20,033 nt of DNA, from assembly GCF_003334315.1 (NCBI RefSeq), contig NZ_QOWR01000069.1; one strand, given 5' to 3'. This stretch comes from Escherichia coli (GTDB lineage Bacteria > Pseudomonadota > Gammaproteobacteria > Enterobacterales > Enterobacteriaceae). The notes beneath the pieces are model-generated. The model searched no databases and was not told the origin of the DNA. It saw nothing but the letters and a program-made list of their open reading frames with translations. The position numbers and the translations under genes are program-made. Of the stretch, positions 4,947 through 19,630 are shown in pieces. Positions within the stretch are counted from its first letter, which is position 1, and the number at the start of each line of letters is the position of its first letter.

Positions 4947-5879
4947 TTACTTATTCTGACGCTGTGATGACATGAGAGACGTCAGAAGCCGGTCTTTTTC
5001 CTGCCACAATGAGTTCAGCCATTGCTGAAAATGGCGCTTAAAGCTTTTGTCATTGATGTAGTCGCCATGTAACTCATCGGCAATAGGCTGTAAATCCACA
5101 TGTACGACAATCCGCGTCAGTTTACCGCTTAACATATCGAAGAACGGCTGACGGTTATTGTCCGGATAACACAGCGTAACATTAAGCAGTTTATCGAATT
5201 GTTTACCCAGTACATTTAGCGCCATCGCAATGCCTGCCGCCTTTGGTGGCAACAAGTTTTGAAAAGTGGAGTGGGTTTGCTGATGTTTTTCTTGCGTGAA
5301 ACGGGAGCCTTCAACGAAATTGACAATGGTGGTGGGATGCAGGCGAAACTTTTCACAAGAACGCCGAGTGGTTTCAACATCTTTACCACGTCGCTCCGGA
5401 TGACGTAATAAATAAGCGCGGGAATAACGCTTCATAAACGGCATATCCAGCGACCAGCACGCCAGGCCAAGAAATGGCACCCAGGCCAGCTGTTGCTTGA
5501 GGAAATATTTATTCATCGGAATGTGCTTACGAAACAGCACGCACAGTACGACAATATCTGCCCAACTACGGTGGTTACAAATAAGCAGATACCAGTTCTT
5601 CTTACTTAACCCTTCCAGCCCGTGAACTTCCCATTGCAGGTGTGGGTTCAGATGCAGTAATACCGCCAGACCTTCACACCAGCAATACATCATAAAATCA
5701 CAAAAACGCGAAACCTTTCGCCAAATGACTGGCACAGGTAGCAATAGTTTTACAATCCCGGCAATGATGATCGGGACGGAACAAAAAATAGTGACCAAAA
5801 TGGTCAATACGATACTCAGCAAAAGGGTTATCGCAGCGAGTATTCTCGTCATAATGAATTTATTCAAAAGGTTAGCCAT
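4947..5879 (-). CDS. yihG: PlsC-family (lysophospholipid) acyltransferase YihG
   Basis: Acyltransferase HX4D motif (CNHRSWADI) and N-terminal transmembrane segment; start chosen at the MANLLNKF... Met (310 aa) rather than the ORF-track upstream Met at 5903. Confidence 0.85.
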
Positions 5880-5969
5880 AGACAGTGCGCTAAAGAAGCG
5901 CAAGGCGCAGATTTTAGCAGAAAACGACCCAAATAACGGATGATCCTTAAGGAGAAAAATAATTCATAT

Positions 5970-5978
5970 CTATCCACA
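5970..5978. promoter_or_regulatory. DnaA-box-like 9-mer (ctatccaca, 8/9 match to TTATCCACA) in yihG-polA divergent promoter region
   Basis: Direct sequence match to the DnaA box consensus with one mismatch. Confidence 0.35.
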
Positions 5979-6110
5979 TTAGAAAAAATCCCATTATCTC
6001 AATTATTAGGGATGGATTTATTATTAACTGCATGAAAAACAAAGACAAACATCATGCTGTAAAAAGCATGATAATAAATTAAAAGCGATGTAAATAATTT
6101 ATGCACAAAG

Positions 6111-6119
6111 TTATCCACA
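6111..6119. promoter_or_regulatory. Consensus DnaA box TTATCCACA about 125 bp upstream of the polA start
   Basis: Exact 9/9 match to TTATCCACA; polA transcription is reported to be DnaA-responsive. Confidence 0.55.
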
Positions 6120-6242
6120 TGACGATTTGCGAGCGATCCAGAAGATCTACAAAAGATTTTCACGAAAAGCGGTGAAAAACTCATGTTTTCATCCTGTCTG
6201 TGGCATCCTTTACCCATAATCTGATAAACAGGCACGGACATT

Positions 6243-9029
6243 ATGGTTCAGATCCCCCAAAATCCACTTATCCTTGTAGATGGTTCATCTTATCTTTATC
6301 GCGCATATCACGCGTTTCCCCCGCTGACTAACAGCGCAGGCGAGCCGACCGGTGCGATGTATGGTGTCCTCAACATGCTGCGCAGTCTGATCATGCAATA
6401 TAAACCGACGCATGCAGCGGTGGTCTTTGACGCCAAGGGAAAAACCTTTCGTGATGAACTGTTTGAACATTACAAATCACATCGCCCGCCAATGCCGGAC
6501 GATCTGCGTGCACAAATCGAACCCTTGCACGCGATGGTTAAAGCGATGGGACTGCCGCTGCTGGCGGTTTCTGGCGTAGAAGCGGACGACGTTATCGGTA
6601 CTCTGGCGCGCGAAGCCGAAAAAGCCGGGCGTCCGGTGCTGATCAGCACTGGCGATAAAGATATGGCGCAGCTGGTGACGCCAAATATTACGCTTATCAA
6701 TACCATGACGAATACCATCCTCGGACCGGAAGAGGTGGTGAATAAGTACGGCGTGCCGCCAGAACTGATCATCGATTTCCTGGCGCTGATGGGTGACTCC
6801 TCTGATAACATTCCTGGCGTACCGGGCGTCGGTGAAAAAACCGCGCAGGCATTGCTGCAAGGTCTTGGCGGACTGGATACGCTGTATGCCGAGCCAGAAA
6901 AAATTGCTGGGTTGAGCTTCCGTGGCGCGAAAACAATGGCAGCGAAGCTCGAGCAAAACAAAGAAGTTGCTTATCTCTCATACCAGCTGGCGACGATTAA
7001 AACCGACGTTGAACTGGAGCTGACCTGTGAACAACTGGAAGTGCAGCAACCGGCAGCGGAAGAGTTGTTGGGGCTGTTCAAAAAGTATGAGTTCAAACGC
7101 TGGACTGCTGATGTCGAAGCGGGCAAATGGTTACAGGCCAAAGGGGCAAAACCAGCCGCGAAGCCACAGGAAACCAGTGTTGCAGACGAAGCACCAGAAG
7201 TGACGGCAACGGTGATTTCTTATGACAACTACGTCACCATCCTTGATGAAGAAACACTGAAAGCGTGGATTGCGAAGCTGGAAAAAGCGCCGGTATTTGC
7301 ATTTGATACCGAAACCGACAGCCTTGATAACATCTCTGCTAACCTGGTCGGGCTTTCTTTTGCTATCGAGCCAGGCGTAGCGGCATATATTCCGGTTGCT
7401 CATGATTATCTTGATGCGCCCGATCAAATCTCTCGCGAGCGTGCACTCGAGTTGCTAAAACCGCTGCTGGAAGATGAAAAGGCGCTGAAGGTCGGGCAAA
7501 ACCTGAAATACGATCGCGGTATTCTGGCGAACTACGGCATTGAACTGCGTGGGATTGCGTTTGATACCATGCTGGAGTCCTACATTCTCAATAGCGTTGC
7601 CGGGCGTCACGATATGGACAGCCTCGCGGAACGTTGGTTGAAGCACAAAACCATCACTTTTGAAGAGATTGCTGGTAAAGGCAAAAATCAACTGACCTTT
7701 AACCAGATTGCCCTCGAAGAAGCCGGACGTTACGCCGCCGAAGATGCAGATGTCACCTTGCAGTTGCATCTGAAAATGTGGCCGGATCTGCAAAAACACA
7801 AAGGGCCGTTGAACGTCTTCGAGAATATCGAAATGCCGCTGGTGCCGGTGCTTTCACGCATTGAACGTAACGGTGTGAAGATCGATCCGAAAGTGCTGCA
7901 CAATCATTCTGAAGAGCTCACCCTTCGTCTGGCTGAGCTGGAAAAGAAAGCGCATGAAATTGCAGGTGAGGAATTTAACCTTTCTTCCACCAAGCAGTTA
8001 CAAACCATTCTCTTTGAAAAACAGGGCATTAAACCGCTGAAGAAAACGCCGGGTGGCGCGCCGTCAACGTCGGAAGAGGTACTGGAAGAACTGGCGCTGG
8101 ACTATCCGTTGCCAAAAGTGATTCTGGAGTATCGTGGTCTGGCGAAGCTGAAATCGACCTACACCGACAAGCTGCCGCTGATGATCAACCCGAAAACCGG
8201 GCGTGTGCATACCTCTTATCACCAGGCAGTAACTGCAACGGGACGTTTATCGTCAACCGATCCTAACCTGCAAAACATTCCGGTGCGTAACGAAGAAGGT
8301 CGTCGTATCCGCCAGGCGTTTATTGCGCCAGAGGATTATGTGATTGTCTCAGCGGACTACTCGCAGATTGAACTGCGCATTATGGCGCATCTTTCGCGTG
8401 ACAAAGGCTTGCTGACCGCATTCGCGGAAGGAAAAGATATCCACCGGGCAACGGCGGCAGAAGTGTTTGGTTTGCCACTGGAAACCGTCACCAGCGAGCA
8501 ACGCCGTAGCGCGAAAGCGATCAACTTTGGTCTGATTTATGGCATGAGTGCTTTCGGTCTGGCGCGGCAATTGAACATTCCACGTAAAGAAGCGCAGAAG
8601 TACATGGACCTTTACTTCGAACGCTACCCTGGCGTGCTGGAGTATATGGAACGCACCCGTGCTCAGGCGAAAGAGCAGGGCTACGTTGAAACGCTGGACG
8701 GACGCCGTCTGTATCTGCCGGATATCAAATCCAGCAATGGTGCTCGTCGTGCAGCGGCTGAACGTGCAGCCATTAATGCGCCAATGCAGGGAACCGCCGC
8801 CGACATTATCAAACGGGCGATGATTGCCGTTGATGCGTGGTTACAGGCTGAGCAACCGCGTGTACGTATGATCATGCAGGTACACGATGAACTGGTATTT
8901 GAAGTTCATAAAGATGATGTTGATGCCGTCGCGAAGCAGATTCATCAACTGATGGAAAACTGTACCCGTCTGGATGTGCCGTTGCTGGTGGAAGTGGGGA
9001 GTGGCGAAAACTGGGATCAGGCGCACTAA
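6243..9029 (+). CDS. polA: DNA polymerase I
   Basis: 928 aa; N-terminal 5'-3' exonuclease region and family-A polymerase motifs DYSQIELR (motif A), [14 protein letters not shown] (motif B), QVHDEL (motif C). Confidence 0.98.
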
Positions 9030-9176
9030 GATTCGCCTGAACATGCCCTTTTTTCGTAAGTAAGCAACATAAGCTGTCACGTTTTGTGATGGCTATTAGA
9101 AATTCCTATGCAACAACTGAAAAAAAATTACAAAAAGTGCTTTCTGAACTGAACAAAAAAGAGTAAAGTTAGTCGC

Positions 9177-9285
9177 GTAGGGTACAGAGGTAAGATGTTC
9201 TATCTTTCAGACCTTTTACTTCACGTAATCGGATTTGGCTGAATATTTTAGCCGCCCCAGTCAGTAATGACTGGGGCGTTTTTTA
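9177..9285 (+). ncRNA. spf: Spot 42 small regulatory RNA
   Basis: Sequence gtagggtacagaggtaagatgttctatctttcagacc... ending in the terminator hairpin ccccagtcagtaatgactgggg plus T-run, recognised as Spot 42; -10-like taaagt at 9164-9169. Confidence 0.9.
9195..9242 (+). CDS. spfP: 15-aa small protein encoded within Spot 42 (SpfP-like), MFYLSDLLLHVIGFG
   Basis: ATG at 9195 preceded by AGAGG; 15 sense codons then TGA, translated by hand. A dual-function Spot 42 peptide has been reported. Confidence 0.5.
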   Translation: MFYLSDLLLHVIGFG

Positions 9286-10313: not shown

Positions 10314-10556
10314 ATAGAGCGAGGACGCTAACAGGAACAATGACTCAGGATGAGGGTCAGGAGCGCCAGGAGGCGAAGACAGAGGATTGTCAGGAAGACA
10401 AACGTCCGGAGACGTAATTAAACGGAAATGGAATCAACACGGATTGTTCTGGCTAATGGAAAAACAGGGTGTGTTGGCGGCCTGCAAGGATTGTAAGACC
10501 CGTTAAGGGTTATGAGTCAGGAAAAAAGGCGACAGATTACTCTGTCGCCTTTTTTC
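10314..10556 (+). ncRNA. csrC: CsrC, CsrA-sequestering sRNA
   Basis: About 243 nt with 14 GGA triplets, mostly as AGGA/CAGGA, far above chance; -10-like taaagt at 10301-10306; ends in terminator aaaaaaggcgacag...ctgtcgcctttttt; sits between engB and yihI. 5' end approximate. Confidence 0.85.
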
Positions 10557-10624
10557 TTTGCTTGCTTTCTGTTAGATTCCGCCGCAAATCTATACTGAAT
10601 AAAACGGCTAAAAGACGAACCATT

Positions 10625-17350: not shown

Positions 17351-17439
17351 CGCACCATCGTGCAAAAGGGCTGCACCACGATGTGAATGTTGCACCAATA
17401 TAGTGCTTCAATGGAAACATTAAGCACCATGTTGGTGCA
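17351..17439 (-). promoter_or_regulatory. Cluster of NtrC enhancer binding sites upstream of glnAp2
   Basis: Repeated TGCACC/GGTGCA half-sites: tgcaccaatatagtgct (17391-17407), agcaccatgttggtgca (17423-17439), weaker copies at 17351-17388. Confidence 0.65.
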
Positions 17440-17590
17440 ATGACCTTTGGATAACCCTTTTTATGCTCCGTGAAAGCGATCACAAAGGGACTCTGCAATA
17501 CTTGTTTGCGGAGGATGTTTGTGATCCTGTTTTGTAGTGCGATTAATCCGTGTACAATAACGCGCTATTTCTAATGCCTGAGGCAAAGTT

Positions 17591-19414
17591 GTGATCGAAA
17601 AATTGCGTAATATCGCCATCATCGCGCACGTAGACCATGGTAAAACCACCCTGGTAGACAAGCTGCTCCAACAATCCGGTACGTTCGACTCTCGTGCCGA
17701 AACCCAAGAGCGCGTGATGGACTCCAACGATTTGGAGAAAGAGCGTGGGATTACCATCCTCGCGAAAAACACCGCTATCAAATGGAATGATTACCGTATC
17801 AACATCGTTGATACCCCGGGGCACGCCGACTTCGGTGGTGAAGTTGAACGTGTAATGTCCATGGTAGACTCAGTGCTGCTGGTGGTTGACGCATTTGACG
17901 GCCCGATGCCGCAAACGCGCTTCGTAACCAAAAAAGCGTTTGCTTACGGCCTGAAGCCGATTGTTGTTATCAACAAAGTTGACCGCCCTGGCGCGCGTCC
18001 TGATTGGGTTGTGGATCAGGTATTCGATCTGTTCGTTAACCTCGACGCGACCGACGAGCAGCTGGACTTCCCGATCGTTTACGCTTCTGCGCTGAACGGT
18101 ATCGCGGGTCTGGACCACGAAGATATGGCGGAAGACATGACCCCGCTGTATCAGGCGATTGTTGATCACGTTCCTGCGCCGGACGTTGACCTTGACGGTC
18201 CGTTCCAGATGCAGATTTCTCAGCTCGATTACAACAGCTATGTTGGCGTTATCGGCATTGGCCGCATCAAGCGCGGTAAAGTGAAGCCGAACCAACAGGT
18301 CACTATCATCGATAGCGAAGGCAAAACCCGCAACGCGAAAGTCGGTAAAGTGCTGGGCCACCTCGGTCTGGAACGTATCGAAACCGATCTGGCGGAAGCT
18401 GGCGATATCGTGGCGATCACGGGCCTTGGCGAACTGAACATTTCTGACACCGTTTGCGACACGCAAAACGTTGAAGCGCTGCCGGCACTCTCCGTTGATG
18501 AGCCGACCGTTTCTATGTTCTTCTGCGTTAACACCTCGCCGTTCTGCGGTAAAGAAGGTAAGTTCGTAACGTCTCGTCAGATCCTGGATCGTCTGAACAA
18601 AGAACTGGTACACAACGTTGCGCTGCGCGTAGAAGAAACCGAAGACGCCGATGCGTTCCGCGTTTCTGGTCGTGGCGAACTGCACCTGTCTGTTCTGATC
18701 GAAAACATGCGTCGTGAAGGTTTCGAACTGGCGGTATCCCGTCCGAAAGTTATCTTCCGTGAAATCGACGGTCGTAAACAAGAGCCGTATGAAAACGTGA
18801 CGCTGGACGTTGAAGAACAGCATCAGGGTTCTGTAATGCAGGCGCTGGGCGAACGTAAAGGCGACCTGAAAAACATGAATCCAGACGGTAAAGGCCGCGT
18901 ACGTCTCGACTACGTGATCCCAAGCCGTGGTCTGATTGGCTTCCGTTCTGAGTTCATGACCATGACTTCCGGTACTGGTCTGCTGTACTCCACCTTCAGC
19001 CACTACGACGACGTACGTCCGGGTGAAGTGGGTCAGCGTCAGAACGGCGTACTGATCTCTAACGGTCAGGGTAAAGCGGTCGCGTTCGCGCTGTTCGGTC
19101 TGCAGGATCGCGGTAAGCTGTTCCTCGGTCACGGTGCAGAAGTTTACGAAGGTCAGATTATCGGTATTCATAGCCGCTCTAACGACCTGACTGTAAACTG
19201 CCTGACCGGTAAGAAACTGACCAACATGCGTGCTTCCGGTACTGACGAAGCCGTTGTTCTGGTTCCGCCTATCCGCATGACTCTGGAACAAGCTCTGGAG
19301 TTCATCGATGATGACGAACTGGTAGAAGTGACCCCGACCTCTATCCGTATTCGTAAACGTCACCTGACGGAAAACGATCGTCGTCGCGCCAACCGCGCAC
19401 CGAAAGACGATTAA
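17591..19414 (+). CDS. typA: Ribosome-associated translational GTPase BipA/TypA
   Basis: 607 aa, GTG start with GAGG SD; G-domain motifs [18 protein letters not shown]; EF-G-like domain architecture. Confidence 0.97.
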
Positions 19415-19431
19415 TTTCGTTTTTTAGTCAT

Positions 19432-19464
19432 AAAAAACCTGCCAGCGATGGCAGGTTTTTTTTT
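19432..19464 (+). terminator. Rho-independent terminator of typA
   Basis: A-run, stem cctgcca / tggcagg with 4-nt loop, then nine T. Confidence 0.85.
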
Positions 19465-19630
19465 GCCTGTCGTGAGCACTCAGCAATGCGAGTATCTCCC
19501 TTATAAGTCTGTGGTTACGTCAATAGAGAGCTTTGTCACAATTATCTGCAAAGTCATACGCCGTTAATTGCTTTCTTTTTTGGCGTAAGCGTAAGATGCC
19601 TCATCTGGTTTAAACCAAAAGGATTAAACA

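Follow-up and report, generated by a model that had tools for sequence, protein, structure and literature searches.

Organization of the yihG-polA intergenic region

The window, a stretch of 20,033 nucleotides, is Escherichia coli K-12-type chromosome, and its coordinates are those of MG1655 (NC_000913.3) less 4,040,723; the MG1655 polA start at 4,046,966 falls at window position 6243. The locus lies approximately 121 kb from oriC. The divergently oriented genes yihG and polA are separated by 363 bp (5880-6242) in which the K-12 annotation places no feature. A preliminary description, made from the sequence alone, had given this interval as 5904-6242 (339 bp), a left edge derived from the longest open reading frame, which starts at TTG 5903. 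This codon cannot be the yihG start because the mapped yihG transcription start site (TSS) lies at about 5903, and the boundary is corrected to the annotated ATG at 5879. The AT-richness noted in the same description is borne out by a GC content of 35.3%, as against 50% for the window. When 701 bp around the DnaA boxes described below were used as query, all 5,426 complete genomes of E. coli gave a match, in most cases with an identity of 99% or more. The features of the region are collected in Table 1.

Table 1. Genes, promoters and DnaA-related elements of the yihG-polA region (window coordinates)
Feature	Position	Strand	Remarks
yihG	4947-5879	−	Annotation; start codon is the ATG at 5879
yihG promoter (yihGp), extended −10 TGcTAAAAT (+ strand 5911-5919), TSS ~5903	5903-5919	−	
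Distal DnaA box CTATCCACA, 8/9	5970-5978	+	−246 to −238 of polAp; centre at −71 of yihGp
IHF-consensus-like motif, proposed bend site	6025-6037	−	+ strand TAACTGCATGAAA; − strand TTTCATGCAGTTA; 2 mismatches from WATCAANNNNTTR
Upstream half of double box, TTATGCACA, 8/9	6099-6107	+	−117 to −109 of polAp
Downstream half of double box, perfect DnaA box TTATCCACA	6111-6119	+	−105 to −97 of polAp
GATC pair	6135-6138 and 6144-6147 (element 6134-6151)	.	Inside weak box-like 9-mers CGATCCAGA and AGATCTACA
polAp extended −10: TG 6201-6202 and CATCCT 6204-6209	6201-6209	+	Mendoza-Vargas 2009, Table S1
polAp TSS	6216	+	−27 from the polA ATG; 27-nt 5' UTR; Mendoza-Vargas 2009
polA CDS (DNA polymerase I), the regulated gene	6243-9029	+	Annotation

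Promoters for both genes are listed in Table S1 of Mendoza-Vargas 2009. For polAp the −10 is given as 'ctgtGGCATCCTttac' with the entry '−10 ext (TG) yes' and no −35, and the start site is represented by a single 454 read that lies within 1 nt of the previously known polAp. For yihG, a 5' end is placed at −24 and the promoter is given as 'ttctGCTAAAATctgc', again with an extended TG. A consensus scan of the + strand from the boxes to polA revealed no canonical promoter, and the polAp start site, the sole mapped + strand TSS of the region, is downstream of all the boxes. polAp is thus a weak extended −10 promoter (TGgCATCCT) lacking a −35 element. A reading of TGGCATCCT as a σ54 or σ32 promoter was discarded, since the spacing to the GC or CCCCAT elements is, by eye, unfit and the string is the mapped σ70 extended −10.

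Several other candidate features of the region were considered and set aside. A search with Rfam returned nothing between yihG and polA and, across 20 orthologous loci, only the unrelated RyhB. An 80-aa open reading frame on the − strand (5999-6241) is broken by stops in Citrobacter, and a 72-aa frame on the + strand (5725-5943), annotated as 'hypothetical' in some RefSeq genomes, is an antisense overlap with the 5' end of yihG. The 16-codon frame at 6032-6082 is open in E. albertii, but it lacks a Shine-Dalgarno (SD) sequence and a mapped promoter, and its peptide is not conserved elsewhere. A hairpin resembling a terminator, at 6050-6073 (−), was rejected as a functional RNA: its arms are not complementary in E. 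albertii and the 40-mer is polymorphic within E. coli. The SD-like taaggag at 5948-5954 is incidental, as the preliminary description had supposed: it has no ATG, GTG or TTG at a usable distance, and E. albertii reads aaatag at this position.

Three DnaA boxes upstream of polA

The preliminary description reported two DnaA boxes, a perfect one, TTATCCACA, and an 8/9 match, CTATCCACA, and both are present on the + strand at the positions claimed. A third box, TTATGCACA, had been overlooked; it lies on the same strand, separated from the perfect box by a gap of 3 bp. Measured against the consensus TTATNCACA (TTWTNCACA), the box at 6111-6119 is perfect, that at 6099-6107 fits, and that at 5970-5978 deviates at one position. 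The functional partner of the perfect box is the adjacent box at 6099-6107, and not primarily the distal one.

The composition of the region predicts 0.0038 perfect boxes and 0.11 boxes with at most one mismatch; three or more of the latter have a probability of about 2e-4 and arose in 0 of 5000 shuffles. The pair formed by a box with at most one mismatch and a perfect box across a 2-3 bp gap is expected about 1e-6 times. Over the entire window, 10 boxes with at most one mismatch were counted against an expectation of 3.56, and 3 of the 10 lie here within 150 bp and on the same strand.

Within E. coli, the boxes are near-invariant and the spacer between them is polymorphic. The 40-mer around the double box is identical in 5,387 of the 5,426 genomes and that around the distal box in 5,402, while a 40-mer from the middle of the spacer (6038-6077) is identical in 4,026, with 889 genomes yielding no megablast match to it at all. 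One natural E. coli isolate, strain S1-CAM-01-A, carries an IS1 at window 6079-6087, parting the distal half of the region from the double box, and an intact arrangement of the distal and proximal sites is therefore not essential.

Occupancy by DnaA in vivo

Binding of DnaA at this locus has been documented. A DnaA site had already been predicted here computationally (Mendoza-Vargas 2009), and the ChIP-seq study of Stringer, Fitzgerald and Wade 2024 (PMC11317965) found 16 regions bound by DnaA in E. coli, polA among them. The polA peak, at 4,046,831, is enriched 123-fold over the control and corresponds to window position 6108, at a resolution too coarse to part the distal box from the double box; it was assigned by these authors to a 'double DnaA box', tTTATGCACAaagTTATCCACAt, a string found at window 6098-6120. 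The coordinates in that paper are labelled NC_000913.2, but its oriC, datA and purH peaks fit NC_000913.3, and they were taken as version 3; the string itself places the double box unambiguously whatever the version. Mutations at purH, rather than at polA, showed that DnaA binding requires both halves of a double box as well as the gap of 2-3 bp (PMC11317965). The double box at 6099-6119 is thus occupied by DnaA in vivo, probably as a DnaA dimer.

The consequence of this binding for transcription is known from Quinones et al. 1997 who, as cited by three papers including PMC11317965, reported that DnaA activates polA in stationary phase. Together, the published ChIP-seq and the activation so cited support the proposal that the boxes couple polA expression to DnaA. 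The occupancy and fusion experiments recommended in the preliminary description have essentially been carried out in published work, with occupancy centred on the double box, and the DnaA sites upstream of polA are real and an already known member of the small E. coli DnaA regulon. The effect of DnaA on polA expression may be small: when the DnaA-ATP fraction or DnaA titration is perturbed, proteins of the DnaA regulon stay at wild-type levels (PMC12371093). How DnaA activates transcription is poorly understood (PMC11317965).

Conservation of the layout across gammaproteobacteria

Eighty gammaproteobacterial polA loci were fetched with the PolA N-terminus as query, and boxes were counted over 81 sequences. 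With one mismatch allowed, a proximal box was present in 48 of the 81 upstream regions, 92-185 bp upstream of polA, and only one taxon deviated from the perfect sequence. It was found in all sampled free-living Enterobacterales, in the Vibrionaceae and also in Shewanella, Pseudoalteromonas, Idiomarina, Rheinheimera, Alteromonas and relatives (Alteromonadales); among the 81 sequences, it was absent from Pasteurellaceae, Pseudomonas/Stutzerimonas, Halomonadaceae, Marinomonas and Cellvibrionales. In nearly every one of the 48 box-bearing taxa, the proximal box is preceded, across a gap of 3 bp, by a partner that ends in ACA.

The distal box is conserved as well. In 28 taxa it is kept as NTNTCCACA, on the same strand and 141-143 bp upstream of the proximal box, with start-to-start spacings of 141 bp (8 taxa), 142 bp (16 taxa) and 143 bp (4 taxa). 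It occurs at this spacing in 22 of 23 Enterobacterales loci and in 4 of 5 Vibrionaceae loci, the fifth (L029) having too little upstream sequence. The DNA that separates the boxes is rich in AT and can hardly be aligned from one genus to another; its length is kept, its sequence is not. This comparison indicates a three-site layout that is ancient and rigidly spaced.

The layout persists next to different upstream genes and therefore belongs to polA, not to yihG. Only 10 of the 80 loci have yihG as the upstream neighbour of polA; the other neighbours are dsbA (co-directional, in most Enterobacterales), elbB, hemB, a queuosine-precursor transporter and RyhB. It appears that yihF-yihG was inserted upstream of the three boxes in the lineage of Escherichia, Citrobacter and Enterobacter. 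The earlier framing of the region as a divergent yihG-polA control region is of secondary importance, the layout being kept with dsbA, elbB, hemB or other genes upstream; in E. coli the distal box does sit at about −71 of yihGp.

Coupling of the boxes to the polA promoter

A second conserved element accompanies the boxes. Of the 48 box-bearing taxa, 45 carry the motif TGGCATNCT (TGTCATTCT in 2 taxa), as against 0 of the 33 box-less taxa; in E. coli this motif is the extended −10 mapped for polAp. The proximal box is 47 to 137 bp away from it, and the distances fall into clusters at 47-52, 56-61, 69-72, 78-82 and 88-92 bp, that is, in steps of about 10.5 bp. With the TSS set 15 nt after the TG, the box centres lie across taxa at about −60, −70, −81, −91 and −101. 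Rayleigh analysis of unique or clade-collapsed values, from taxa that are related to one another, gave, at periods of 10-11 bp, R values near 0.46-0.49 and modest p-values near 0.003-0.015; no signal appeared at 8, 9, 12 or 13 bp when unique distance values were used. Providencia, at 137 bp, is off-phase and is the one outlier. Such periodicity hints at a requirement for DnaA to occupy one given face of the helix with respect to RNA polymerase.

The central motif and the GATC sites

In an alignment of Enterobacterales and Vibrio, the only conserved columns between the boxes, at 90% or more, read TAAnnnnnTGA, a pattern compatible with the IHF consensus WATCAANNNNTTR when this is reverse-complemented. 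Most Enterobacterales, and Aliivibrio too, have their best IHF match at +55/+56 from the distal box, with no mismatch in 6 taxa; in Pseudoalteromonas, perfect matches occur at +56/+57, on the opposite strand. The mean best IHF mismatch was 1.29 as against 1.72 ± 0.08 in shuffled sequences, with 0 of 300 shuffles as low, a contrast that is inflated by the relatedness of the taxa. In E. coli itself the 13-mer at 6025-6037 departs from the consensus at 2 positions, as do several AT-rich 13-mers nearby. The genome-wide IHF papers and supplements searched made no mention of IHF at the polA locus; the supplements of Kasho 2021 contained no IHF match there, and a search for literature linking IHF to polA returned nothing relevant. 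Binding of IHF at 6025-6037 is put forward here as a hypothesis prompted by the conserved columns.

GATC sites are also abundant, numbering 98 in 47 taxa against 42 expected. Across Enterobacterales, GATC pairs recur within +13 to +36 of the proximal box; in Vibrio, GATC sites immediately follow the distal box. The hexamer AGATCT, contained in AGATCTACA, has been reported as a binding site for ATP-DnaA in the dnaA promoter, and the E. coli pair may represent possible SeqA/Dam sites or low-affinity sites for ATP-DnaA. Weak DnaA boxes arrayed as in oriC, in steps of 11 or 12 bp, were not found at the polA locus.

A model for the DnaA-responsive control of polA

Taken as a whole, the region is best explained as a DnaA-responsive control region of the polA promoter, a reading to which we assign a probability of roughly 0.85. 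DnaA bound at the double box would act as a class-I-like activator that shares a helical face with RNA polymerase, with the box placed, across taxa, 47-92 bp from the −10 element in steps of about one helical turn. The distal box at 5970-5978 would be a third, ancestral DnaA site, held 141-143 bp upstream, that probably acts in cooperation with the double box, the IHF-like motif providing the bend, and a compact complex of DnaA, the bending protein and DnaA would raise occupancy. The GATC pairs beside the boxes may add a replication-coupled timing, through Dam and SeqA, after passage of the fork.

In its most specific form, this mechanism envisages a rigid three-part module (single box, about 46 bp, IHF-type bend, about 61 bp, double box) that would fold into a looped DnaA-IHF-DnaA complex, of the kind known from datA and oriC, leading to polA transcription, its 141-143 bp spacing fixed from Escherichia to Vibrio, docked in register to an activator-dependent extended −10 promoter and furnished with GATC pairs in Dam+ lineages. 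We regard this looped form as tentative, and the odds are somewhat against it. Should it hold, the module would be a tractable model of transcription activation by DnaA and might feed back on the state of DnaA.

The comparative results are of modest value in themselves. They add the fixed 142-bp spacing, the bend-site-like motif and the apparent helical phasing with a promoter that lacks a −35, none of which was addressed by ChIP work in a single species, and such conserved constraints offer concrete and cheap mutational tests of transcription activation by DnaA. The distal box, its fixed spacing and the IHF-like site are described nowhere in the literature searched, in which Quinones et al. 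1997 is represented by citation; within that scope, the conserved spacing, the central motif and the phasing appear to be new.

Alternative explanations

The most serious competing explanation holds that the site serves mainly in the management of DnaA rather than in the regulation of polA, either as a sink that titrates DnaA or as an element of the datA or DARS type that changes its nucleotide state. The ChIP signal at polA (123) exceeds that at dnaA (5), nrdA (14) and mioC (25) and approaches those of datA, oriC and DARS2, at about 200 (PMC11317965); the layout of same-strand boxes around an IHF-type motif parallels that of datA; polA lies within an oriC-proximal zone enriched in DnaA boxes; and the expression of the DnaA regulon is insensitive to perturbation of DnaA (PMC12371093). 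Neither the strict co-occurrence of box and promoter motif nor their apparent helical register would, however, be expected of a purely titrating or catalytic site. The three boxes also travel with polA through changes of upstream neighbour, no array of low-affinity boxes lies between or beside the strong ones, and the opposed core boxes of the DARS type are absent, all three boxes having the same orientation. We consider it unlikely that management is the main function of the site; a role in management and the regulation of polA are not mutually exclusive. The distal box, considered alone, might instead regulate the divergent yihG promoter and be unrelated to polA, its centre being 71 bp upstream of the yihG TSS at about 5903 in E. 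coli, a position typical of an activator. With yihG upstream in so few of the loci, and with the distal box and its 141-143 bp spacing persisting where dsbA, elbB, hemB or the queuosine-precursor transporter takes its place, this assignment is also unlikely, slightly more so than the preceding one, and any role at yihG could be a secondary co-option only.

DnaA at these boxes could also be imagined as a roadblock or repressor of transcription entering from upstream, for example as read-through of dsbA or yihF-side transcripts, or from an upstream promoter. Roadblocks by DnaA are documented elsewhere (PMC11317965), dsbA is co-directional in most Enterobacterales, and in Alteromonadales a conserved extended −10-like sequence, TGTGGTAGTCT, is directed toward polA from 60-80 bp upstream of the distal box. 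In E. coli, however, the upstream gene is divergent and the only mapped + strand TSS (6216) is downstream of the boxes, and it is activation, not repression, that is reported for polA in the literature as cited, making a roadblock quite improbable. Finally, it might be argued that DnaA boxes will occur by chance in a region of 35% GC and that single consensus boxes are often unbound, as are 19 of 32 in E. coli (PMC11317965). Against an expectation of 0.004 perfect boxes and about 1e-6 double boxes, and with a site that is bound in vivo and conserved from Escherichia to Shewanella and Alteromonas, we give chance virtually no weight.

Comparison with known systems

The preferred reading, DnaA-responsive control of polAp, can be set beside class I activator promoters. 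Class I activation by CRP occurs from positions −61.5, −72.5, −82.5 and −92.5, a same-face pattern. Like such promoters, polAp is weak and lacks a −35 element, and the box centres across taxa suggest that its activator site may keep to one helical face; unlike CRP-dependent class I promoters, it has DnaA as the activator, and E. coli polA uses the most distal of the positions (−101/−113). To our knowledge, no contact between DnaA and the α-CTD of RNA polymerase has been described.

Among DnaA-bound loci, polA shares with purH, nrdA, mioC and nrdD a double box of same-strand 9-mers with a 2-3 bp gap, one of them the perfect TTATCCACA, bound in vivo. The double box at polA is itself no different from these; what polA adds is the third box, kept about 142 bp away across taxa. 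The upstream region of purH has no equivalent clean third box and no shared promoter motif.

A parallel to the entire layout is offered by datA, which promotes DnaA-ATP hydrolysis through a complex of DnaA box 2, the IHF-binding site (IBS) and box 3. There, too, high-affinity boxes on one strand lie to either side of an IHF-type 13-mer, with a double box on one of the two sides. The order at datA is double box, 56 bp, IBS, 84 bp and box 3, and that at polA is single box, 46 bp, IHF-like motif, 61 bp and double box, so that single and double sites are reversed; the ChIP signals, 213 at datA and 123 at polA, are of the same order. The IHF-like site of polA is imperfect, whereas that of datA is perfect, and the polA module appears to be held in helical register with a promoter. 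A similar geometry is found in the left half of oriC (R1/IHF site/R5M), where DnaA on the strong outer box is thought to contact DnaA on inner sites across the IHF bend. Compared with oriC, polA has neither a DUE nor low-affinity arrays, its arms are longer, and the proposed output is transcription rather than unwinding.

A natural spacing mutant of the polA control region

The polA locus of E. coli S1-CAM-01-A (L086 among the fetched polA loci) is a natural spacing mutant. An IS1 element, flanked by the 9-bp target duplication TTAAAAGCG, was found in this strain at the site equivalent to window positions 6079-6087, with its insertion point 12 bp upstream of the double DnaA box. Through this insertion, the distal box and the IHF-like motif are displaced by approximately 777 bp.

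GATC sites beside the DnaA boxes (features are collected in the table) were followed across polA loci. GATC pairs occur at conserved offsets: in the Enterobacterales (L003-L024) at +13 to +36 relative to the proximal box, and in the Vibrio loci L026, L037, L052, and L055 directly after the distal box. Alteromonadales loci are nearly devoid of them. Over 47 taxa, the total was 98 GATC sites observed versus 42 expected. This pattern suggests that Dam/SeqA or ATP-DnaA may have a role here. The coordinate frame stated in Table 1 of the published DnaA ChIP-seq study (PMC11317965) is NC_000913.2, but its oriC, datA, purH, and polA peaks match NC_000913.3 positions.

Features in the window and in Alteromonadales-type polA loci
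Feature	Position	Strand	Remark
yihG promoter	window 5903-5919	−	mapped TSS (−24), extended −10 TGcTAAAAT
GATC pair	window 6135-6138 and 6144-6147		beside proximal DnaA box
72-aa ORF	window 5725-5943	+	some E. coli RefSeq genomes list it as WP_001305068.1 (hypothetical protein)
16-codon ORF MKNKDKHHAVKSMIIN	window 6032-6082	+	
Terminator-like hairpin	window 6050-6073	−	T-rich tail
Spot 42	window 9167-9285		Rfam gathering-score match
CsrC	window 10314-10567		Rfam gathering-score match
ES222	window 17402-17509		Rfam gathering-score match
STnc370	window 19399-19467		Rfam gathering-score match
TGTGGTAGTCT	~60-80 bp upstream of distal box		L035, L036, L038, L039, L045, L065, L077, L032, L056
TGGCTGAA/TGGCCGAA	20 bp upstream of TGGCAT		L034, L039, L042-L044, L053, L065, L077

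The upstream neighbourhood

The TSS and extended −10 element mapped for yihG (Mendoza-Vargas 2009) rule out the TTG at 5903 as its start codon; measured from that TSS, the distal DnaA box is centred at −71 of yihGp. The gene immediately preceding the polA control module is dsbA in most Enterobacterales (e.g. L010, L014, L017, and L019-L023). The presence of yihF-yihG between the two (yihG at window 4947-5879) is confined to Escherichia, Citrobacter, Enterobacter, and relatives; this distribution implies that an insertion took place roughly 90 bp away from the distal box. For Vibrio bivalvicida, the gene directly upstream of the distal box encodes the small RNA RyhB (L052 1054-1119), approximately 380-450 bp upstream of polA. 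For the small RNA matches in the window, the K-12 ncRNA annotation agrees for Spot 42 and CsrC and additionally includes GlnZ.

Two open reading frames and a hairpin were considered within the yihG-polA region. The longer frame is antisense to the 5' end of yihG, and WP_001305068.1 is probably a spurious call. The 16-codon frame, which shares bases with the TGA conserved in the IHF-like motif, is still open in E. albertii, as MKNNNKYYSVKSMIIN, but it is likely fortuitous, since it has neither a Shine-Dalgarno sequence nor a mapped promoter. The hairpin was rejected as functional RNA; it is not kept in E. albertii and lies within the part of the spacer that is polymorphic among E. coli.

Promoter-like motifs in Alteromonadales-type loci

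In the polA promoter of Shewanella and Alteromonas-type loci, the −35 region holds a conserved TGGCTGAA/TGGCCGAA element, such that the TGGC of the −10 element is repeated two helical turns apart. Common to the Alteromonadales and Idiomarina is an extended −10-like motif, TGTGGTAGTCT, oriented toward polA. This motif may represent a second promoter of polA or a small transcript; no Rfam family matched it.
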